NCBI GenBank assembly: GCA_965209235.1
Contig: OZ242382.1
Span: forward strand, 1,327,010-1,391,009
Direction: 5' to 3'
Origin: Gammaproteobacteria bacterium
GTDB lineage: Bacteria; Pseudomonadota; Gammaproteobacteria; G965209235
Length of the DNA: 64,000 nt
Shown here piece by piece: positions 4,608 to 54,294 of this stretch; position 1 is the stretch's first letter; the number at the start of each line of letters is the position of its first letter. Under the pieces are notes generated by a model. That model searched no databases. It had not been told where the DNA came from and saw only the letters and a list, made by a program, of their open reading frames with translations. Made by a program: the position numbers and the translations under genes.

Positions 4608-5536
4608 CGGACGTTCTCACGGAAGATCGTCTTGTTGAAGAGATGACCCGCATCATTGATACGGCCGTTAACGACTGCATCGTGGTGGGCCCAGGTGATG
4701 ATGGGTGTGTCGTGTACCCACCGCCCGGCCATCCTATCGTGTCATCGATTGACCAGCACATCGACAACGTCCACTTTCCTTTGGATGTGGGCGGGGGGCG
4801 AGCTTTTGCCAAGCGTGCCATGGCTGCTGCCTTAAGCGATCTCGCGGCGATGGGCGCAACGCCACTGTGGGCACTTGTCGCGGCAACACTTCCAAAGGCG
4901 CGATTGGGTGCATGTGCGCGGGACATCGCGATGGGTTTGCGCGATGCTGCAAAGGCGTGGGACTGCCCCATTGCCGGCGGTGATATCGCCAAAACTGACG
5001 GACCAGCATCCCTGCATATCAGCGTTCACGGATATACGTCAGTCAAGCCGCTGCTCAGACGAGGCGCCGTGACAGGAGACGACATTTGGGTGTCTCATGA
5101 GTTAGGCGGCGCGCTGTTGGGGCGAGAGCAGCTTCTGGGGACTACTAGCTACCGCGATCACGACTGGCGTCACCGTTACCTCGAACCCGTCCCAGAGATT
5201 GCCTTAGGGCGCGCTTTGGCATCGTTGGCGCATTCGGCCATGGATATCTCTGATGGATTGGCTTCAGATCTGCCGCGCATGTGCCGGATGTCGGATGTTG
5301 GTGCACGTATTGAAGTCAACTTGATCCCAGTAGTAGCGGGGTTGTCACCGCAAGACGTCGTGGCTCAAGCATCTGATGACTACAAGTTGCTGTTTACCGC
5401 GCCGCAGGCATCTCGCAATCCCATTCATCGCGTGTGCAAGGAAGCAAGACGTATTGGTATCTGCACGAGTGATCTCGCGATCCAGTGGTTGGGTATGAGC
5501 GAACCGCCCAAGGGTTTTGACCACATCCAATCATGA
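4604..5536 (+). CDS. thiL: thiamine-monophosphate kinase
   Basis: Motifs 'GDDGCVV' and 'AMDISDGLASDL'. The ATG at 4604 forms an ATGA overlap with the selO stop. Confidence 0.85.
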   Translation: MTDVLTEDRLVEEMTRIIDTAVNDCIVVGPGDDGCVVYPPPGHPIVSSIDQHIDNVHFPLDVGGGRAFAKRAMAAALSDLAAMGATPLWALVAATLPKARLGACARDIAMGLRDAAKAWDCPIAGGDIAKTDGPASLHISVHGYTSVKPLLRRGAVTGDDIWVSHELGGALLGREQLLGTTSYRDHDWRHRYLEPVPEIALGRALASLAHSAMDISDGLASDLPRMCRMSDVGARIEVNLIPVVAGLSPQDVVAQASDDYKLLFTAPQASRNPIHRVCKEARRIGICTSDLAIQWLGMSEPPKGFDHIQS

Positions 5537-6003
5537 CGAAATACGATCCGTACCGCCTCTGGACATCTTTCTTCGGATCGGGCTACGCGCCTTTTGCACC
5601 CGGCACTGCGGGGTCGTTGGCGTCGGTCCCGCTTGGCATCTTGATTGGGATGGTGCCCGTCCCATTGGGTCTGGTGGTTTTAGCGTTGTATGGCGCAATG
5701 AGCCTGTACTGCGTCTCGCGAGTCAGCGCTGCGCTCGCCGAGCACGACTCAAAGGAAATCGTGTGCGACGAGGTGTTGGGTGTGCTGATGCTCGGCGTGG
5801 CACTCGGGGAACCTCGGTTGTCGCTCGACTATGTGCTGGGCTGGGTGTTCGCCATGACGATGTTTCGCGTTTTTGATGCGCTCAAGCCGCAACCGATCAA
5901 AGCTATCGACACGCATGTGAAGGGTGCGTGGGGGGTCATGTTGGACGATGTAGCTGCCGCAGCCATCCCGTGTGCGGCGATTATTGTTTTCACTTTGCCA
6001 TGA
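5533..6003 (+). CDS. pgpA: phosphatidylglycerophosphatase A
   Basis: 156-aa membrane protein with 'FFGSGYAPFAPGTAGSL' and 'DEVLG...FRVFDALKP'. It sits in the thiL-pgpA synteny and has an ATGA overlap with thiL. Confidence 0.85.
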   Translation: MTKYDPYRLWTSFFGSGYAPFAPGTAGSLASVPLGILIGMVPVPLGLVVLALYGAMSLYCVSRVSAALAEHDSKEIVCDEVLGVLMLGVALGEPRLSLDYVLGWVFAMTMFRVFDALKPQPIKAIDTHVKGAWGVMLDDVAAAAIPCAAIIVFTLP

Positions 6004-6033
6004 CCGAGGCCGTTGTCAAGATAATTCATTAAC

Positions 6034-6639
6034 GTGATTACATCACCACTAATGAACCGAGCAGCGTCAGCCACATTGCCACTCCGAGGCCATGTCTTCG
6101 ATATCCATGTCTTCACAGATGGTGAACAGGAGCACGTGGCTCTTTGCCTCGGTGGTATCGAAGCCACCGATTCGTCGAAAGCACCCTTAGTGCGCGTGCA
6201 CTCTAAGTGCCTCACGGGCGACGCATTCGGTAGCACGAAATGCGATTGCCAAGGCCAACTGAATGCGTCGCTCGCGCGCATTGCCGAGGAACAGTGCGGC
6301 GTTTTAGTCTATTTAGACCAAGAAGGGCGCGGGATTGGTCTCGTTGAGAAGATTAAGGCGTATGCGCTTCAAGATCAGGGGATGGATACGGATGAAGCCA
6401 ACGTGGCACTGGGACACAAAGTTGATGAACGGACGTTTGCAGTGGCAGGCAACATCTTGAAGGCGCTCAAGGTGTCTCGAGTCCGTCTTCTGACCAACAA
6501 CCCGTCCAAAGTGAGAGATGTGGAGAGTGCTGGGATTACGGTCGAGTCGCGAGAAGAGCTGTGGGTCGAGATCGGAACCGAAGAAGGTAAGAAATACGCG
6601 GAAATTAAACGTTCACGAATGGGGCATTTGGGCGCGTAA
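6034..6639 (+). CDS. ribA: GTP cyclohydrolase II
   Basis: Motifs 'VRVHSKCLTGDAFGSTKCDCQGQL' and 'EGRGIGLVEKIKAYALQDQG'; C-terminal 'MGHL'. Confidence 0.9.
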   Translation: MITSPLMNRAASATLPLRGHVFDIHVFTDGEQEHVALCLGGIEATDSSKAPLVRVHSKCLTGDAFGSTKCDCQGQLNASLARIAEEQCGVLVYLDQEGRGIGLVEKIKAYALQDQGMDTDEANVALGHKVDERTFAVAGNILKALKVSRVRLLTNNPSKVRDVESAGITVESREELWVEIGTEEGKKYAEIKRSRMGHLGA

Positions 6640-8506
6640 TCGCTTGCTGAAAGGCTTCGGTGATTGCGGTTTCATCGAGGCCTGATTGCTTGAGCTGAAA
6701 GTCGCGCGACCCGTGCGGGATGATCGCGTCAGGGATGCCGAAACGGATCAGGCGCGGAACAGCATGCCCTTGGCCTGCAAGGTCAGCATAAAACTCAAGA
6801 ACAGCGGACCCAGCGCCTCCGCTAGCGATGCCGTCCTCCAGTGTTCCAACGATGGGGCACGTTCCTGCGATCTCTGTCAGCAGACTTTCGTCCAGTGGTT
6901 TCACGAATCGCATGTCTACCAACCCTGAACCAGTCGCTTCTGCGACTTTATCCGCCGTTTGAAGCAGCGTTCCAAAGTTCAAAAGACAGGGTTGTCCCGG
7001 GCTAGGCATGCGAACGACGCGCGCTTCGCCTTGCTTCATAGGGGTGACAGCACCTGTTTGGGCATGCGCCTCTCCTCTTGGATAACGAACGGCAATGACG
7101 CCGTCTCCATCCACCGCATATTCCAACGCTTGAATGAGTTCTTCGCGAGATGAGGGGGCCAAAATCTCGATGTCTGGCAAGACACGAAGCGTCGCCATGT
7201 CGTAGAGTCCGTGGTGCGTCGGGCCATCCTCGCCAACCAAACCACCGCGATCGATGGCAAGGACCAAGCGTGCCCGTTGAAGGGCCGCGTCATGAACCAC
7301 TTGATCGTACGCCCGTTGCATGAATGTGGAGTAGATTGCCACGATCGGGGTGCGGCCCCCGATGCCCATAGCTGCCCCCAACGTGACGGCATGCTGTTCA
7401 GCAATGGCGACATCATGAGCGCGAGTGGGATGCTTCTGAAAGTACTCAAGCAGACCAGATCCCTCACACATCGCAGGTGTGATGACTTCAATAGTAGGAT
7501 CGTGATTTGCGCGTTCGGTTACCCATGAACCAAAGACCGATGAGTAGGTCGGCTGGGTTACCGGTTTGCTCTTTTGAGCTTTGGGAATCGCGTGGTGCGT
7601 GATGCGCTCTGCTTCCGCGGACGCAAACCCCTTGCCCTTATGGGTGATGCAATGCACAAGCCACGGGCCCGATCGTTCATGAACCGCTCGCATGGTCTGC
7701 ATGACTTGTGCCACGTCATGGCCATCGATGGGACCGACATAGCGAATGCCCATCTCTTCAAACAGCGCGCCAGGCACGGTGTGTTTGCGCACAGTTCGTC
7801 CCACTTGACGGGCGAAGTGCAGTCCCCGAGGGAGGTGCTCAAGCACGTGTTTACCGCCGGAGCGCAGGGTCATGTAAGACTTACTGGCCCAGATTCGCGC
7901 AAAGTAGTTGGTTAATGCGCCGATGTTGTGGCTAATCGACATATCGTTGTCGTTCAGGACGATCACCATGGGCAGTTTGACGTGACCGATGTGATTGAGG
8001 GCTTCGAAAGCCATACCGGCGGTGATGCCTCCGTCGCCGATGATGGCGCAGACGCGGCGCTCTTCTTTGGCAGCGCGCGCGGCATACGCCAACCCAATGG
8101 CGGCACTAATAGAGGTCGAGGAGTGGCCCGCGCCAAATACGTCGTATTCGCTTTCCTCTCGCAGCAAGAAGGGTGCGGGCCCGTCTGCCGACCGGATGGA
8201 TGGCATGGCCTCTCTGCGCCCTGTTAAGACTTTGTGAGGGTAGGCTTGATGCCCGACATCCCAGACCAACAGATCGTTGGGCGTGTCGAAGGTGGCATGT
8301 AACGCCACCGTCAGTTCGACGGTCCCAAGGTTACTACCGAAGTGGCCGCCTGACCGATTAGTTGACCACAGTAAAAAGGCCCGTAACTCATCGCAAAGCA
8401 CTTCTAAATGGTCGTCATCCAACGCGCGCAAGTCATGTGGGCTGTTGATCGTATCCAAAAGTGGTGTGTGCGGGCGCTCGTGCGGGAGCTCGTGATAGAT
8501 CTTCAT
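6605..8506 (-). CDS. dxs: 1-deoxy-D-xylulose-5-phosphate synthase
   Basis: N-terminal 'LLDTINSPHDLR' and ThDP motif 'IIGDGGITAGMAFEALN'. The start is set at the internal ATG at 8506, which forms a TAATG 1-nt overlap with the ispA stop. Confidence 0.92.
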   Translation of the reverse strand: MKIYHELPHERPHTPLLDTINSPHDLRALDDDHLEVLCDELRAFLLWSTNRSGGHFGSNLGTVELTVALHATFDTPNDLLVWDVGHQAYPHKVLTGRREAMPSIRSADGPAPFLLREESEYDVFGAGHSSTSISAAIGLAYAARAAKEERRVCAIIGDGGITAGMAFEALNHIGHVKLPMVIVLNDNDMSISHNIGALTNYFARIWASKSYMTLRSGGKHVLEHLPRGLHFARQVGRTVRKHTVPGALFEEMGIRYVGPIDGHDVAQVMQTMRAVHERSGPWLVHCITHKGKGFASAEAERITHHAIPKAQKSKPVTQPTYSSVFGSWVTERANHDPTIEVITPAMCEGSGLLEYFQKHPTRAHDVAIAEQHAVTLGAAMGIGGRTPIVAIYSTFMQRAYDQVVHDAALQRARLVLAIDRGGLVGEDGPTHHGLYDMATLRVLPDIEILAPSSREELIQALEYAVDGDGVIAVRYPRGEAHAQTGAVTPMKQGEARVVRMPSPGQPCLLNFGTLLQTADKVAEATGSGLVDMRFVKPLDESLLTEIAGTCPIVGTLEDGIASGGAGSAVLEFYADLAGQGHAVPRLIRFGIPDAIIPHGSRDFQLKQSGLDETAITEAFQQAITRPNAPFVNV

Positions 8507-17471: not shown

Positions 17472-18107
17472 ATGCTCGTTGAGCACACTATGTTTTCTCG
17501 GGGTTTTGACGTGCATTCGGTTTTTCTGTTGGGGTGCAAGGCGTACAGCCTCTTCGTTGGTATTGTCCCGCAAGTGTTGTTGCGGGCGTATCTCGTTCCG
17601 GTCTTCTATATGGCTGGAAGCACGAAGCTCGATCACATTGATGCTGTTATTCAGCAATTTGGCGAAGGGTACGGCTTCCCGTTTCCTGCGTTGATGGCGT
17701 ACATGGCAGCACTCACTGAGTACTGCGGTGCCATCATGTTGGCGTTGGGATTTGGCGTGCGCCTTATTTGTATTCCCTTGGCAATTACGATGGTGGTTGC
17801 GGCGTTGTCCGTGCACATTGATCACGGTTGGTTGGCCATTGCATCAGGCTCCGATCCGGAAGTTGCGGAACGTCTCCGTGCCGCTAACGGGATCCTGCGT
17901 GAGAACGCCGTGAACTTCAATTGGCTCGTAGAGAAAGGGCGCTTTGTGATTTTGAATAACGGGATTCAGTTTGCCGCCACGTACTTCATCATGTGCTTGG
18001 CATTGATTGGACTGGGCGCTGGACGGTACTTGAGCGTGGATCACTACGTGATGCCTATCATCTGCCGAAAGGTGAAGTCCATCTTCAACATTGAATGTGG
18101 CGCTTAA
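17472..18107 (+). CDS. DoxX-family integral membrane protein
   Basis: Multi-helix hydrophobic protein with 'LRAYLVPVFYMAGSTKL' and 'ILNNGIQFAATYFIMCLALIGLGAGRYLSVD', typical of DoxX. The start may be the ATG at 17490. Confidence 0.65.
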   Translation: MLVEHTMFSRGFDVHSVFLLGCKAYSLFVGIVPQVLLRAYLVPVFYMAGSTKLDHIDAVIQQFGEGYGFPFPALMAYMAALTEYCGAIMLALGFGVRLICIPLAITMVVAALSVHIDHGWLAIASGSDPEVAERLRAANGILRENAVNFNWLVEKGRFVILNNGIQFAATYFIMCLALIGLGAGRYLSVDHYVMPIICRKVKSIFNIECGA

Positions 18108-18139: not shown

Positions 18140-19687
18140 ATGTTTGACGATACGACCATGCTCGATATCTTCCGCTACGTACAAGGGGCGTTAGATTTCC
18201 TGTCTGTTCTGTTTGTGTTTGCGGTTGGCTTGGCGATCATGTCCATCCCGGTGTTGTACGTCCTTGACCGTGCTCAATCGCAGCAAGCCATTCGACGCAA
18301 CTACCCTGTGGTGGGGCGGTTTCGGTATTACTTCGAAACACTGGGTGAGTTCTTTCGCCAGTATTTCTTTGCGATGGATCGCGAAGAGATGCCTTTCAAC
18401 CGCGCTGAGCGCTCGTGGATCTATAAGGCCGCTAAGAATAAAGACACGACCCAGCCTTTCGGTTCAACGCACACGATCCGGTCGATCGGTAGCAACATCT
18501 TTGCCAACTCTATGTATCCCGTGCAAGAGCAAGACTCAAATGCACCAGCTGAAGTGACGATTGGCCCGGACACCATTCAACCGTACACAACGCGTTCGAT
18601 TTACAACGTCTCCGGTATGAGCTACGGCGCGTTGTCCAAGCCGGCCGTGCTCGCGCTGTCCGCAGGAGCACGGATGGCTGGCTCCTGGCAAAACACTGGT
18701 GAAGGCGGCATGTCGCCATACCACGTGGAAGGTGGAGCAGACATCGTTTTCCAGATTGGAACCGGAAAGTTCGGTGTTCGTAATGAAGACGGCACGTTGT
18801 CGGCGAAGCGGCTCAAGCAAGTCGCTAAGGGTGAAAACGTGCGGATGTTTGAGATCAAGTTAAGCCAAGGTGCCAAGCCCGGTAAAGGCGGGATTCTTCC
18901 GGCAGCGAAAGTCACGGATGAGATCGCGCGGATTCGTGCGATCGAACCGGGATCCGACTGCTACAGCCCAAACCGCCACACTGAGATTCGTAACATCAAC
19001 GACATGCTCGAGATGATCGCCAGAGTGAGAGATATCACCGGGAAGCCCGTAGGCATTAAGTTTGTGATGGGCCAACCCACAGATATCGATGATTTCTGTG
19101 AAGCAGTGATCGCCCGTGGCTGGGAGTATGCTCCTGACTTCATCACTCTTGATGGCGGAGAAGGCGGCACAGGTGCTGCGCCTTTGACACTGATTGACAA
19201 CGTTGGTATGCCAGTGACAGAAAGCCTGCCCTACCTGATTGACTCCTTGGATATTGCTGGTCTTCGGCCACGGATCAAGGTGGCTGTTGCCGGCAAGCTG
19301 GTCAACCCTGTTGGAGTGGCATGGGCGCTTTGCATCGGCGCCGATTTCGTCAACTCGGCCCGCGGGTTTATGTTCGCACTCGGATGTATTCAAGCGCTGC
19401 GTTGTCACGAGAACACGTGCCCCACCGGTATTACGACGCACAACAAACGCCTGCAAAAAGGTTTGAATCCTGAGTCGAAAGCTGTCAGAGTGGCAAACTA
19501 CATCCAAAACATGACGAAGGAAGTGGAAGTGATTGCGCGGTCATGCGGGGTTGATAACCCGCGGTCGTTGCGTCGGCACCACGTCCGGCGGGTGAAAGAA
19601 GACGGCGTTTCCGTCGCTTGGTCCTCACTCTATCAGCCAATCAAATCGAATGGTGACGAACATCGTGTCGGCAGCATCGGTTCGTGA
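18140..19687 (+). CDS. FMN-binding glutamate synthase-domain family protein, N-terminal membrane anchor
   Basis: Motifs 'SGMSYGALS', 'FEIKLSQGAKPGKGGILP' and 'ITLDGGEGGTGAAP' (GltB FMN-domain signature); N-terminal TM helix. Confidence 0.8.
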   Translation: MFDDTTMLDIFRYVQGALDFLSVLFVFAVGLAIMSIPVLYVLDRAQSQQAIRRNYPVVGRFRYYFETLGEFFRQYFFAMDREEMPFNRAERSWIYKAAKNKDTTQPFGSTHTIRSIGSNIFANSMYPVQEQDSNAPAEVTIGPDTIQPYTTRSIYNVSGMSYGALSKPAVLALSAGARMAGSWQNTGEGGMSPYHVEGGADIVFQIGTGKFGVRNEDGTLSAKRLKQVAKGENVRMFEIKLSQGAKPGKGGILPAAKVTDEIARIRAIEPGSDCYSPNRHTEIRNINDMLEMIARVRDITGKPVGIKFVMGQPTDIDDFCEAVIARGWEYAPDFITLDGGEGGTGAAPLTLIDNVGMPVTESLPYLIDSLDIAGLRPRIKVAVAGKLVNPVGVAWALCIGADFVNSARGFMFALGCIQALRCHENTCPTGITTHNKRLQKGLNPESKAVRVANYIQNMTKEVEVIARSCGVDNPRSLRRHHVRRVKEDGVSVAWSSLYQPIKSNGDEHRVGSIGS

Positions 19688-19697
19688 GCGGCAACCC

Positions 19698-19703
19698 TAT
19701 AAT
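19698..19703 (+). promoter_or_regulatory. consensus -10 hexamer TATAAT upstream of the Cys-repeat precursor gene
   Basis: Exact TATAAT 55 nt upstream of the ATG at 19758. There is no good -35. The Shine-Dalgarno GGAGG is at 19744-19748. Confidence 0.3.
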
Positions 19704-19757
19704 ACGCAACCGTTAAGAATAGCGGTATCCCTGAAGGCTAGCTGGAGGTTTTATACC

Positions 19758-20234
19758 ATGAGCCACAAGAACGATCAACAGAAATCCATGCGTACCCCGG
19801 CTGTTGCAGCAGCTTTGGTTGGTGCAAGTGCATTTCTCGGAATTTCCAACGTCAGTGCAGATGTGCTATTCGGTTTCGAAAAGTCCACCTACGGTGAGTT
19901 TGAACATCATCTGAGTGATGATAAGGACGACGCTGCCAAGCCATCTGGCGAGGAAGGTGAAGGAAGCTGCGGCGAAGGCAGTTGCGGCGAAGAATCCACA
20001 TCCGAAGGCAGTTGCGGCGAAGGAAGCTGTGGTGAGTCTGGTGAGAAAGCCGCGCATGGCGAAGGTGACTGCGGTGAAGGCAGTTGCGGCGAAGGATCCA
20101 CATCTGAAGGCAGCTGCGGCGAAGGAAGCTGTGGTGAGTCCGGCGAGAAAGCAGCCCATGGCGAAGGCAGTTGCGGTGAAGGTGAGGAAGCTTCATCCGG
20201 TGAAGGTTCCTGTGGCGAAGGCTCCTGCGGCTGA
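19758..20234 (+). CDS. secreted EG[S/D]CG-repeat precursor protein (HvfA / 'EGKCG bufferin'-like RiPP substrate)
   Basis: GGAGG lies 9 nt upstream of the ATG. The signal peptide is 'MSHKNDQQKSMRTPAVAAALVGASAFLGISNVSA', followed by an acidic linker. There are 11 Cys, all within E-G-[S/D]-C-G, and the protein ends on EGSCG-stop. It sits immediately upstream of the DUF692 and DUF2063 genes. Confidence 0.85.
   Translation: MSHKNDQQKSMRTPAVAAALVGASAFLGISNVSADVLFGFEKSTYGEFEHHLSDDKDDAAKPSGEEGEGSCGEGSCGEESTSEGSCGEGSCGESGEKAAHGEGDCGEGSCGEGSTSEGSCGEGSCGESGEKAAHGEGSCGEGEEASSGEGSCGEGSCG
19992..20195 (+). repeat. 2 x 102-bp in-frame tandem duplication within the precursor gene
   Basis: 19992-20093 and 20094-20195 align codon for codon. 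Over codons 2-25 the 7 differences are all third-position synonymous changes. Confidence 0.9.
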
Positions 20235-20279
20235 TACCGTCCCTCAAGATCATCCAATTTGATCATCCGATCGAAATAG

Positions 20280-21113
20280 ATGCTTGATATAGGAGTGAGT
20301 GGTGCAGGCTTAGGTCTGCGCCGCTCGCTCCTTTCTCATTATGAGACCCTCGAATGCCGCAAAGATGGCATTCAATTCTTAGAGTGCGCCCCCGAGAACT
20401 GGATAGATGTCGGGGGGGGCTGGCGCCGTCGGTTTGAAGCAATTGCTGACCGCTTTCCGTTGGTTTGTCACGGGTTGTCGCTGTCTCTGGGAACTCCAGC
20501 TCAAATAGACGTTGAACACGTCAAGAAAGTGGGTGCCTTTCTGAACGAGTTTGGAGTGCGCTTTTACTCTGAGCATCTTTCATACACGGGAGATGAAGCG
20601 TCTGTTTTCGAACTCTGCCCGATTCCATTTACCGAAGACGGCGTCAGACAGACGGCAGATAACATTAAGTTAGTTCAAGATGTTCTTGGCCGCCAGATAG
20701 GCGTCGAGAATGTGTCTTACTACACCACAACAGACGGCTCCATGCCAGAGCATGAGTTTGTGAATCAGGTTCTTGAAGCGGCGGACTGCTTGCTATTGCT
20801 TGATGTGAATAACTTAGAGTGCAATCGGATCAATCACGGTACGAGACCGCAGGAGCTTCTGCAGTCTGTTCCGCATGAGCGGGTTGCCTATCTGCACATC
20901 GCGGGTCACAAACCGGTCGGGGACATGGTGGTGGATACCCATGGTGAAGCAGTGATCGATGAGGTTTGGTCGATCCTTGATCAAACCTACGGAACGTTTG
21001 GAGCAGTCCCCACGTTATTGGAGCGAGACTCCAATTTTCCAGCGTTCGAAGAACTGCTGGCAGAGATCTCGAATATCAACCAGATCATGGGTCAGCATTC
21101 TCTCGCTGCTTAA
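20280..21113 (+). CDS. DUF692 / MNIO-family (multinuclear non-heme iron oxidative) enzyme, MbnB/BufB/HvfB-like
   Basis: Family landmarks in order: 'GLGLRR', 'CHGLSLSLG', 'YSEHLSY', 'GVENVSYY', 'LLLDVNNLECN', 'LHIAGH', 'VDTHG', 'TLLERD'. Confidence 0.88.
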   Translation: MLDIGVSGAGLGLRRSLLSHYETLECRKDGIQFLECAPENWIDVGGGWRRRFEAIADRFPLVCHGLSLSLGTPAQIDVEHVKKVGAFLNEFGVRFYSEHLSYTGDEASVFELCPIPFTEDGVRQTADNIKLVQDVLGRQIGVENVSYYTTTDGSMPEHEFVNQVLEAADCLLLLDVNNLECNRINHGTRPQELLQSVPHERVAYLHIAGHKPVGDMVVDTHGEAVIDEVWSILDQTYGTFGAVPTLLERDSNFPAFEELLAEISNINQIMGQHSLAA

Positions 21114-21150
21114 TTCGTAGCTTGTGCATTTTGAATGTGTTTGTTGAAGC

Positions 21151-21975
21151 ATGAGTGACAAACATCGCGAAGACGCGAATATGACTGAGACTCAGCAATG
21201 GCAGCGATGCTTCCTGTCCTGGATACGCACCGGCGAGGGGGCGATTCCGAAGGGTATGTCGCGTGCTCGTATTCAGGTGTACCGAAACTTGGTGCTCAAC
21301 GGCTACACCTCTTTCTTCTCGAACCTTTTTCCAGCTGCGGCGTTCTTGGTGGGGCAAGAAGCCATGCAGACGCTGATTGCACAGTTCTTTTCTCGCTACC
21401 GCACGCGCGAAACACTGTTTCATGAGCTTGGGCGAGATGTTGTTGCGTTTGCACACGAGATTGACCCAATCGGAAAATTTAGTTCAGCTGGGTGGCGATC
21501 TGCTGTCTCCGTGATGGAGTTTGAGTGGCTGCTCTTCTGGACAAGAAAAGCAAAGGATATCGAACGACGTGATTTCATCGGACTCAGCGACGATGCCTGT
21601 CACTTTGCTGAACACCTTGCGGTGTATCGCTTTGCATGTCGCGTGGTTCAGCTGCGCGAATTAGCGTTGAAAGCGCGAGACGAAAATAATCGACGTCATC
21701 CTGATATCATCAAGATGATGAAGCGACAAGACGTTCAGCATGTCGCCATATGGCGTCAGGAGAGTGAGGAACCGCGTTTTCGGACACTGACCCCGGCGAT
21801 GGCATTTTCTGTACACAAGTTACTTGATGGTGGTGGCATTTCAGCGGCCTCGGTTGTCAAGGAGTTGGCGGAGCGGTCGGGACAGCCTTACGAGCATGTC
21901 CTACAACATGTCCGTCAAGGGTTGACCAACTTCAAGAACGCTGGCGCGTGGGCCGCACATCAGGAAGAGTCATGA
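21151..21975 (+). CDS. DUF2063-type partner protein (MbnC-analog; BufC/HvfC-like RiPP recognition/maturation subunit)
   Basis: N-terminal DUF2063-like pattern 'QQWQRCFLSWIR...RIQVYRNLVLNGYTSFFSNLFPAAAFLVGQEAMQTLIAQFF'. Obligate-neighbour position after DUF692. The start may be the ATG at 21181. Confidence 0.75.
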   Translation: MSDKHREDANMTETQQWQRCFLSWIRTGEGAIPKGMSRARIQVYRNLVLNGYTSFFSNLFPAAAFLVGQEAMQTLIAQFFSRYRTRETLFHELGRDVVAFAHEIDPIGKFSSAGWRSAVSVMEFEWLLFWTRKAKDIERRDFIGLSDDACHFAEHLAVYRFACRVVQLRELALKARDENNRRHPDIIKMMKRQDVQHVAIWRQESEEPRFRTLTPAMAFSVHKLLDGGGISAASVVKELAERSGQPYEHVLQHVRQGLTNFKNAGAWAAHQEES

Positions 21976-22583
21976 CACAGCATCTGGAGATTGGACCTCA
22001 AACGGTTCAGACAGAGGCACTTTGGGTGCGGTGGCACAAGTGGTTGGATGATGCCAATCGAGCTGGTGCGGTACTGCCAAATGCAATGTGCCTATCGACG
22101 GTCAGTTCCGATGGCAAACCCTCTAGTCGGATGGTGCTGATGAAGCACTCTCAAGCCGGCACGATCACTTTCTTTACAGACCGGACCAGCCGCAAAGCTG
22201 CAGACTTGGCGTCGAATGGCCATGTGAGCATGACATGGTGGTGGCCGCAGGTTGGACGTAGCGTGCGCATGGAAGGATGGTGTGAGTTTACCGACACAGT
22301 GACTGATGACGACTATTTCAGCAGTCGACCTGCAATTAGCCAGGCTTCCGCCATGGCGTCTCATCAATCGCAACCCATTGGCTCAATTGACGACCTCAAA
22401 CAACAGCGTGATGCGCTCTTAAAGCGAGGCAATCTCTCCCGTCCGGATCGATGGGGCGGTTACGTAGTGGCAATTCAAACGACCGAACTATGGCAGGATC
22501 AAGAAGGCCGTCTTCATCAGAGAGAGGAGTACGGTCGAGTGCCAGGTACCGATACGTGGACACGGCGATTGCTTTCCCCTTGA
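21972..22583 (+). CDS. pdxH: pyridoxamine 5'-phosphate oxidase
   Basis: Motifs 'PNAMCLSTVSSDGKPSSRMVLMK', 'WGGYVV...ELWQDQEGRLHQRE' and C-terminal 'RLLSP'. The ATG at 21972 makes an ATGA overlap with the upstream stop. Confidence 0.85.
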   Translation: MTQHLEIGPQTVQTEALWVRWHKWLDDANRAGAVLPNAMCLSTVSSDGKPSSRMVLMKHSQAGTITFFTDRTSRKAADLASNGHVSMTWWWPQVGRSVRMEGWCEFTDTVTDDDYFSSRPAISQASAMASHQSQPIGSIDDLKQQRDALLKRGNLSRPDRWGGYVVAIQTTELWQDQEGRLHQREEYGRVPGTDTWTRRLLSP

Positions 22584-25859: not shown

Positions 25860-25936
25860 GGTGGGCGTAGCTCAATAGGCAGAGCTCTGGTTTGTGGTAC
25901 CAGCGGTTGTGGGTTCAAGTCCCACCGTCCACCCCA
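25860..25936 (+). tRNA. tRNA-His (GUG)
   Basis: Hand-folded cloverleaf. G-1 pairs with discriminator C. Acceptor GTGGGCG/CGTCCAC, anticodon loop TTGTGGT, T-loop GTGGG-TTCAAGT-CCCAC, encoded CCA. Confidence 0.9.
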
Positions 25937-54219: not shown

Positions 54220-54294
54220 TGGCTGGGGTGGTAGGACTCGAACCCACGAATGGCGGGACCAAAACCCGCTGCCTTACCACTTGGCTACACCCCA
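54220..54294 (-). tRNA. tRNA-Gln (UUG)
   Basis: The reverse complement folds as a cloverleaf. Acceptor TGGGGTG/CACCCCA, anticodon stem GCGGG/CCCGC with loop TTTTGGT, T-loop TTCGAGT, discriminator G plus CCA. It closely resembles E. coli tRNA-Gln. Confidence 0.9.

Follow-up and report, generated by a model that had tools for sequence, protein, structure and literature searches.

The stretch of DNA analysed here, referred to as the window, comprises 64,000 nucleotides of a Gammaproteobacteria bacterium assembly (GCA_965209235.1, contig OZ242382.1, positions 1,327,010 to 1,391,009 of the forward strand), and we conclude with good confidence that it carries a five-gene operon, hvfX(DoxX)-gltS-like-hvfA-hvfB-hvfC, of the hvf type, the type also called 'oxazolin', Buf_EGKCG or captophorin. 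Its central product would be a peptide made on the ribosome and modified after translation (RiPP), derived from a secreted, cysteine-rich precursor, HvfA. The confidence that we express covers the overall reading, that is, the identity of the operon together with a mechanism inferred from characterised relatives. Gene content, family assignment, conservation of the catalytic motifs, repeat architecture, genomic association and RNA structure are established directly. A first-pass annotation, made from the sequence alone, had delimited a three-gene cassette of precursor, multinuclear non-haem iron oxidase (MNIO) and DUF2063 partner; this boundary has to be moved, since hvfX and a glutamate-synthase-like (GltS-like) flavoprotein gene lie directly 5′ on the same strand and had been missed. 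The five genes are the following:

17472-18107, + strand: hvfX, DoxX-family membrane protein, 211 aa as called (NF050144 and Pfam DoxX)
18140-19687, + strand: glutamate-synthase-like flavoprotein gene, 515 aa (Pfam PF01645)
19758-20234, + strand: hvfA-type precursor gene, 158 aa, 11 Cys (NF050137, homologues, alignment)
20280-21113, + strand: hvfB-type MNIO gene, 277 aa (PF05114, NF003818, PDB 3BWW)
21151-21975, + strand: hvfC-type partner gene (PME type 1), 274 aa, divergent (PF09836, PF22106, NF050145)

The gaps between them measure 32 nt (hvfX to gltS-like), 70 nt (gltS-like to hvfA), 45 nt (hvfA to hvfB) and 37 nt (hvfB to hvfC), and hvfX lies on the same strand as hvfA, ~1.65 kb 5′ of it. 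For the last three genes, the coordinates, the open reading frame (ORF) lengths, the GGAGG sequence 9 nt 5′ of hvfA and the 45- and 37-nt spacers that had been read at first pass were all found in the sequence as described.

Is the precursor a real gene? The frame, from the ATG at 19758 to 20234, encodes 158 aa with 11 Cys, every one of them within an (E/G)G(S/D)CG motif, so that the eleven candidate modification sites counted earlier hold. The spacing of the Cys (5, 10, 5, 14, 5, 10, 5, 14, 13, 5) defines a 34-aa unit made of two 17-residue repeats, and three elements can be placed along the gene:

19758-19859, + strand: predicted Sec signal peptide, residues 1-34, with predicted cleavage at VSA/DV (n, h and c regions; family alignment)
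19869-19895, + strand: post-signal motif F38...G46, family consensus (N/S)PFxxxxLxxG(Y/F)M (30-sequence alignment)
19959-20182, + strand: 102-bp tandem DNA repeat, 2.2 copies, encoding the 34-aa units (two 17-residue EGSCGEGSCG repeats; Tandem Repeats Finder score 350, 87% matches)

Between the two complete copies of 34 codons there are 10 codon differences, 8 synonymous and 2 non-synonymous, a pattern which indicates that the repeat copies are under purifying selection, with every CG dyad kept. Because the copies of the tandem repeat differ mostly by synonymous changes and because the precursor has 181 homologues at E <= 1e-3, we conclude that the ORF is a genuine coding sequence and not a chance low-complexity frame. 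The precursor was absent from a collection of 15 billion proteins when looked for under three ATG starts, whereas its DoxX, GltS-like, MNIO and HvfC neighbours were present there, and it is probably unannotated in the public record. We detected no second precursor-like ORF in the window.

The Sec-type signal peptide that had been proposed is supported by a basic n-region (K4, K9, R12), a hydrophobic stretch (residues 14-32), a c-region ending at VSA/DV, and an alignment with 29 family members that extends from the signal peptide over the F...G motif to the paired CG motifs. In the case of H. influenzae HvfA, the signal peptide is removed by signal peptidase I when the protein is made in E. coli (PMC11252979). 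The segment that follows had been described as an acidic linker; a linker is indeed present after the signal, although not as a plain spacer, since it holds F38 and G46, both invariant in the 30 sequences, next to a nearly invariant P37. Because of this invariance, we consider that the F38...G46 segment is probably a recognition segment.

The profile hidden Markov model searches proposed as a check have now been run on all three proteins, with positive results. For the precursor, NCBIfam model NF050137 (KCGExKCG_twice, the HvfA-family repeat domain) matched five stretches with 54.7 bits (cutoff 19.5; E 5.7e-15), and Pfam gave no match, hence no DUF2282. Curated profiles thus bear out the earlier suggestion that the closest relatives are HvfA and the EGKCG bufferins, and by its scores the precursor is a member of the HvfA family, not an orthologue of H. 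influenzae HvfA. None of its 11 motifs carries Lys before Cys (10 carry Ser and 1 Asp), and for this reason it would fall in the 'other repeat' category, and not in the 'Lys-Cys' group, of a recent classification (PMC13097082). This type of precursor, acidic and with EGSCG in which Ser takes the place of Lys, is already common in metagenomes and, as a sequence type, no novelty: Ser-type motifs occur in 97 of the 120 best precursor matches, many matches are acidic, and NCBI already names some EGSCG-type precursors 'HvfA family' (P0084, P0098). Such uncharacterised relatives, from metagenomes and from Wenzhouxiangella, share with the window precursor the Ser-type paired motifs, an acidic core, the signal peptide and the F...G motif; the window precursor differs from them in its His-containing EKAAHG linkers, and is among the longer and more Cys-rich of its relatives, with 158 aa and 11 Cys where their medians are 119 aa and 8 Cys.

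The oxidase and its partner fit the same family. The MNIO (DUF692) identity proposed earlier was upheld by PF05114 (302 bits, above the gathering score) and by conservation of all the landmark motifs. Among the NCBIfam models, HvfB (NF003818) scored best with 345.8 bits, followed by BufB (238.3 bits, cutoff 310), ApyH, ChrH and MbnB (45.6 bits, cutoff 325), and the H. somni HvfB-like structure PDB 3BWW was matched with E 5e-65. Against characterised enzymes (the FonB, HvfB, NgoB, FonA and NgoA sequences used for comparison come from the supplement of PMC13097082), the window MNIO is 47% identical to FonB (E 2e-84), 44% to NgoB and 41% to HvfB. When aligned with these three, it keeps HGLS, SEHLS, ENxS, LDVNN, HIAGH, DTHG and ERD, together with the equivalent of the catalytic Asp249 and the arginine pair of GLGLRR, equivalent to FonB Arg15/Arg16, which binds the substrate Glu (PMC13097082; bioRxiv 10.64898/2026.07.17.739211). 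The assignment of the third gene product as a DUF2063 partner likewise stood, with both domains above their gathering scores: PF09836 (DUF2063, HvfC_N) at 58.6 bits (gathering score 27.2) and PF22106 (NGO1945_C, HvfC_C, similar to a RiPP recognition element, RRE) at 28.8 bits (gathering score 27). The partner is 29% identical to FonC over 76 residues and had no sequence match in the PDB.

How does the locus compare with the systems that have names? It shares with oxazolin HvfXABC of nontypeable Haemophilus influenzae the same gene set (DoxX, Sec-signal Cys-repeat precursor, MNIO, DUF2063/RRE partner), the A-B-C order, the paired xGxCG motifs and the lack of a protease or exporter, and its proteins pass the HvfX and HvfA-family models. 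The differences are that the precursor has 158 aa and 11 Cys instead of the 95 aa and 8 Cys (6 modified) of HvfA, that Ser or Asp stands in every motif at the position of the HvfA Lys, that the net charge is ~-27 instead of ~+5 (the mature product, of 124 aa, has a pI of ~4.05), that the N-terminal disulfide Cys pair of HvfA is missing, that the MNIO does not have the ~25-residue insert of HvfB, that HvfC is very divergent, and that hvfX and hvfA are separated by an additional GltS-like gene. Fontiphorin FonABC from Fontimonas thermophila (PMC13097082) provides the closest characterised MNIO, FonB, with the same short HIAGH-DTHG spacing, and FonA shares the post-signal F...G(Y)M-type motif and the paired EGxCG repeats; nevertheless, FonA is of the Lys-Cys type, mildly basic (~+2) and has 7 Cys, and the fon cluster, as given in Table S4 of PMC13097082, lacks both DoxX and a GltS-like gene. 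Ser at motif position 3 has its nearest precedent in gonophorin NgoXABC from Neisseria gonorrhoeae (PMC13097082), whose NgoA has EGSCG/QGSCG beside EGKCG; it is a precedent for the presence of the motif, the text of that paper giving no site-by-site list of modified Cys, and NgoA is strongly basic (~+11) with mixed Ser/Lys motifs, unlike the window precursor. The bufferins Buf1 (DUF2282) and Buf2 of Caulobacter vibrioides (PMC11626156) resemble the locus in that they pair an MNIO with a DUF2063 partner, DoxX being present or not, and, if the analogy holds, in a Sec-exported, thiooxazole-bearing, copper-buffering peptide, but the window precursor is neither DUF2282 nor of the 6/12-Cys type and its MNIO scores lower with BufB than with HvfB. 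With methanobactin (MbnA/MbnB/MbnC) only the MNIO superfamily fold and, presumably, the four-electron oxidation of Cys would be shared: the MbnB score is far below its cutoff, MbnC is missing, a Sec signal takes the place of the leader peptide in the precursor, the heterocycle would differ, and the window locus has no dedicated export or uptake machinery.

The chemistry of this class was revised to 5-thiooxazoles in work published in 2026. The H. influenzae operon is doxX-hvfA-hvfB-hvfC, HvfA (95 aa, of which 24 form the signal peptide) carrying six Cys in AEGKCGEGKCG that each lose 4 Da (PMC11252979). A survey of the Buf_EGKCG/oxazolin group counted ~2,000 proteins of 31-506 aa with 17-residue repeats of two motifs each, a periodicity that the window precursor matches, in clusters that combine genes for a RiPP precursor, an MNIO, a DUF2063 protein and DoxX (PMC12452194). 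The modification of oxazolin, fontiphorin and gonophorin was then re-assigned to 5-thiooxazole and the class named captophorins, with >20,000 clusters in RefSeq (PMC13097082). FonBC accepts Ala, Arg or Thr at position 3 of the motif, requires the residue at position 5 to be small and depends on two motifs in tandem (PMC13097082). HvfB is active with a mixed-valent Fe(II)/Fe(III) pair, a state that it attains only together with HvfC, and in vitro it needs a reductant (bioRxiv 10.64898/2026.07.17.739211). Characterised relatives lose 4 Da per Cys and bind Cu (PMC11252979, PMC13097082, PMC11626156).

By analogy with these relatives, which provide the basis for the chemistry, the export, the copper binding and the regulatory role of a hairpin described below, the window system most likely works as follows. 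HvfA would be made in the cytoplasm and engaged, probably through its conserved F38...G46 segment 3′ of the signal peptide, by a complex of HvfB, the multinuclear non-haem iron oxidase, and HvfC, its DUF2063 and RRE-like partner. Each Cys in the 11 (E/G)G(S/D)CG motifs would undergo an O2-dependent four-electron oxidation to 5-thiooxazole, with an expected mass change of ~-4 Da per Cys, ~-44 Da in total, and a chromophore near 305 nm. EGSCG is a plausible substrate motif because of the tolerance of FonBC for Ala, Arg and Thr at position 3 and because position 5 is small. The modified HvfA would then be exported by Sec and cleaved after VSA34, and the acidic 124-residue periplasmic product would chelate Cu(I) and buffer copper stress. 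At the start of hvfB, the hairpin probably keeps expression of the precursor above that of the enzyme, and HvfX together with the adjacent GltS-like flavoprotein might form an accessory membrane redox pair.

The same genes could act with another product if the MNIO installed methanobactin-type oxazolone/thioamide pairs and not 5-thiooxazoles. The first-pass annotation had left both chemistries open. This alternative draws on the original assignment of HvfA as oxazolone/thioamide (PMC11252979), a chemistry still carried in the NCBIfam names, on the identical mass of the two products, -4 Da per Cys, and on the divergence of the window MNIO with its unusual Ser at the position of FonB-Phe250. We regard it as very improbable, since nuclear magnetic resonance of alkylated products moved oxazolin, fontiphorin and gonophorin to 5-thiooxazole and every MNIO that depends on a type 1 partner is argued to make this heterocycle (PMC13097082), the original HvfA authors now give six 5-thiooxazoles in oxazolin (bioRxiv 10.64898/2026.07.17.739211), and the window MNIO scores 345.8 bits with HvfB against 45.6 with MbnB, with a type 1 partner and not MbnC. 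The literature therefore supports the thiooxazole part of the earlier proposal and not its oxazolone/thioamide part.

Several points weigh against the hvf reading as a whole. The equivalog cutoffs of NCBIfam were missed by the precursor (NF050188 HvfA, 32.2 against 95 bits), by the partner (NF050145 HvfC, 78.8 against 142 bits) and, narrowly, by the MNIO (345.8 against 360 bits, HvfB still standing >100 bits over BufB). Besides an identical copy, no MNIO in a set of 5.8 billion proteins comes closer than 53-56% identity. Given the three missed cutoffs and this distance, the window system is, by its sequence, a divergent lineage; the earlier description of an uncharacterised member is right as to the divergence, but the family itself is well described (PMC12452194, PMC13097082). 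An all-Ser, strongly acidic precursor has no characterised example. AlphaFold2 (30-sequence alignment) gave the precursor a mean predicted local distance difference test (pLDDT) value of 45.6, with no secondary structure and no fold, where a beta-helix fold has been proposed for Buf_EGKCG/oxazolin precursors (PMC12452194). Consensus scanning for sigma-70 sites returned no credible operon promoter, and no copper-responsive regulator is found near the locus. The GltS-like gene is present in 0 of 80 GTDB loci centred on related MNIOs, and Caulobacter needs its DoxX neither for modification nor for protection against copper (PMC11626156). Moreover, the proposed modification, export and metal binding are extrapolated from relatives.

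A further point of this kind concerns the active site. FonB-Phe250 contacts motif positions 3 and 5 and governs the tolerance there (PMC13097082), and its equivalent in the window MNIO is Ser (TLLERDSN, 21030-21038). Phe occupies the site in 117 of the 120 nearest MNIO homologues; Ser was found only in the window MNIO, one homologue has Val and one was not scored. A co-variation of Lys-to-Ser in the precursor with Phe-to-Ser in the MNIO was considered and rejected, 117/120 of the nearest MNIOs keeping Phe. The MNIOs of EGSCG-type relatives also keep it, among them P0136 and P0177, presumed from the equal length of their contigs to be the partners of the Ser-type precursors P0084 and P0096. Because Phe is retained in MNIOs apparently paired with Ser-type precursors, Phe-to-Ser is, across these homologues, a lineage-specific change and not a general co-variation.

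Could the Cys-repeat protein work unmodified, as a secreted thiolate protein for metal binding or redox, with the MNIO and its partner inactive or acting on another substrate? HvfB and HvfC fall below their equivalog cutoffs, a substrate-contacting site has changed from Phe to Ser, stand-alone precursor genes with no adjacent MNIO exist (L161-L163), and there are hvfA-gltS-doxX triads (L125, L127, L143, L148; only L127 and L143 were checked over 6 kb in each direction). Nonetheless, the MNIO has kept all its metal ligands together with the catalytic Asp and the Arg pair, the three genes follow one another closely on one strand in the canonical A-B-C order, purifying selection on the repeat copies keeps every CG dyad, and FonB F250A and F250D still form product, although their substrate tolerance is altered (PMC13097082). 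We consider this explanation very unlikely. As to the stand-alone genes themselves, they are the nearest Ser-type relatives of the precursor (P0002, P0011; at 6001-6384 in L161-L163), and they lie directly 3′ of genes for an extracytoplasmic function (ECF) sigma factor and a DUF3379 protein, perhaps its anti-sigma factor.

Under the hvf reading, the locus is one more divergent member of an abundant, recently characterised copper-binding RiPP class, useful for annotation and unsurprising to a specialist. Its unusual features are the acidic precursor with Ser in place of Lys and the extra flavoprotein gene within the operon. An all-Ser, acidic, 11-site precursor facing an MNIO with Ser at the Phe250 position offers a natural test case for how the enzyme reads the residues around Cys. 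Two parts deserve following up, namely the link to the flavoprotein and the hvfA-hvfB junction hairpin, and both go beyond the literature searched.

What is a GltS-like flavoprotein gene doing in an hvf operon? Its product matches PF01645 (Glu_synthase) with 313 bits and can be aligned with solved GltS large chains over their FMN domain (E 8.5e-35), including the three [3Fe-4S] cysteines CX5CX4CP (CIQALRCHENTCP) and the QGAKPGxGG loop. It has a single N-terminal hydrophobic segment (residues 13-45), read as a membrane anchor, and by the positive-inside rule its catalytic domain should be cytoplasmic. Its neighbour HvfX is recognised by NF050144, 'HvfX family Cu-binding RiPP maturation protein' (177.8 bits, cutoff 80, residues 32-193), and by Pfam DoxX (63.1 bits). 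Since the hvfX ATG lies 35 nt from the start of the divergent nadE (17436) and the HvfX model match begins at residue 32, the start of hvfX and its promoter are uncertain, and the true start may lie downstream of the called ATG.

The 80 nearest GltS-like relatives from metagenomes (56-64% identity, loci L081-L160) were searched for Hvf genes in their flanks by tBLASTn, Pfam and NCBIfam; many of these contigs end before the full flanks. Genes for HvfX, HvfB, HvfC or HvfA flank 22 of the 80, the GltS-like gene being almost always directly beside an HvfX-family DoxX gene, in either order. On a neighbour-joining tree the linked loci are spread over at least four separate clades, with several gene orders: hvfA-hvfB-hvfC...gltS-doxX (L093, L095), hvfB-hvfC-doxX-gltS (L099, L119) and hvfA-gltS-doxX-hvfB (L102, L138). 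The triads mentioned above occupy ~5350-8150 in each locus, and the HvfA-family and HvfX models still recognise their precursors and DoxX proteins. In L127 and L143, the 6 kb to each side contain neither an MNIO nor an HvfC gene; downstream sequence covers only 1.5-2.9 kb in L125 and L148. As a control, the housekeeping neighbours NadE, PdxH, HU and PpiD were found in 0 of the 80 GltS-like loci. The association between GltS-like and Hvf genes is real but limited to certain lineages.

Whether the association implies function is another matter. A serious contender, to which we give somewhat less than an even chance, is that the GltS-like gene is a mere neighbour with its own metabolic function, the functional system being the classical hvfXABC. 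Fifty-eight of the 80 nearest relatives have no Hvf gene in the sequence at hand, those of them that are fully flanked have unrelated neighbours (hexapeptide transferase, DUF3806, HAD, DLH), and the QGAKPGxGG loop suggests a small-molecule substrate. To the absence from the 80 MNIO-centred GTDB loci can be added an absence from the five context loci of near-relative precursors (L161-L165), and published co-occurrence lists do not include the gene; in the searchable text and supplements of PMC12452194 and PMC13097082 we found no GltS-like/Hvf association. On the other hand, 22 of 80 is far above the <1% that we would expect, as a rough estimate and not a computed background, for a random gene to be found 6 kb or less from an MNIO, and it was counted despite the short flanks of many contigs. 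Linkage that recurs in four or more separate clades while the gene order changes is what functional coupling usually produces, the position beside an HvfX-family DoxX is almost constant, and the four housekeeping neighbours of the window never co-occur with the GltS-like gene.

That the flavoprotein is a true functional component of the hvf system is possible but rather doubtful. We put forward, as tentatively, that a membrane-anchored GltS-like subfamily forms a dedicated redox pair with HvfX, an unreported functional module in a subset of HvfA-type systems. Such a pair might move cytoplasmic reducing equivalents across or into the membrane, keeping the periplasmic thiooxazole mercaptans and copper reduced; it might return the MNIO, by reduction, to the active Fe(II)/Fe(III) form; or it might act on the precursor in place of HvfBC in the four triad loci. 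For stand-alone GltS-like proteins of ~500 aa, the literature gives no established function, the only lead being a speculative electron-donor role for C. difficile CD0828. If true, the redox pair would finally supply a biochemical context for DoxX/HvfX, for which a GltS-like flavoprotein recurring beside HvfX is a concrete partner candidate.

The second part worth following up lies at the junction between precursor and enzyme:

20291-20332, + strand: 19-bp RNA hairpin with a U-rich tail, inside hvfB codons 4-18 (flagged as terminator-like by a consensus scan)

The hvfA-hvfB junction folds with a minimum free energy of -51.6 kcal/mol over 114 nt (z -7.45). In nine Hvf loci, with 43-78% GC in the junction region, the first 120 nt past the precursor stop were set against control windows taken from within the MNIO gene. 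The mean z was -3.98 at the junctions against -0.54 in the controls (n=36; Mann-Whitney p 7.6e-6). The pairing partners differ among the nine loci, and therefore it is the structure that is kept, not the sequence. Stable hairpins just after the precursor stop were also seen in L164, L165, L093, L070, L051 and others, with z of the stable hairpin at ~-7 to -8. The hairpin of the window could be an attenuator, a stabiliser of the mRNA 3′ end or a translation brake favouring precursor over enzyme. Its conservation suggests a simple control of the precursor-to-enzyme ratio, which heterologous expression studies may unknowingly remove.

Three further features were mapped around the operon:

19698-19703, + strand: perfect TATAAT hexamer in the 70-nt spacer before hvfA (read from the sequence)
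19744-19748, + strand: Shine-Dalgarno GGAGG, 9 nt 5′ of the hvfA ATG (read from the sequence)
21972-22583, + strand: pdxH, pyridoxamine-5'-phosphate oxidase (NF004231, 176 bits, cutoff 129)

The TATAAT hexamer was not picked up by the sigma-70 consensus scan; it could be the -10 element of an internal hvfA promoter, one without a recognisable -35. The start of pdxH overlaps the hvfC stop (ATGA, 21972-21975) and has a GGAAGAG motif just 5′ of it, an arrangement which suggests that this housekeeping FMN oxidase gene is translationally coupled to the operon. pdxH is probably co-transcribed with the operon yet unrelated to it. We considered it as a member of the system and rejected it, PdxH adjoining Hvf genes in 0 of 160 related loci (L001-L160). 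The surrounding genes are of the housekeeping kind (nadE, pseudouridine synthase, UbiG-like methyltransferase, pdxH, HU protein, ppiD, fabI). No copper regulator or copper homeostasis gene occurs within ~10 kb, and, as had been stated at first pass, there is no dedicated protease or ABC exporter, none being found within ~8 kb of the cassette. Rfam matches in the window are limited to two tRNA genes, at 25861-25933 (+) and 54223-54294 (-), neither of them near the locus. In other genomes, hvf clusters lie directly 3′ of rnf (rnfB/C/D/G/E) and nth, with or without a DUF1841 gene (L099, L119, L143, L164, L165), and this position is shared by several environmental gammaproteobacterial contigs, with and without the GltS-like gene.

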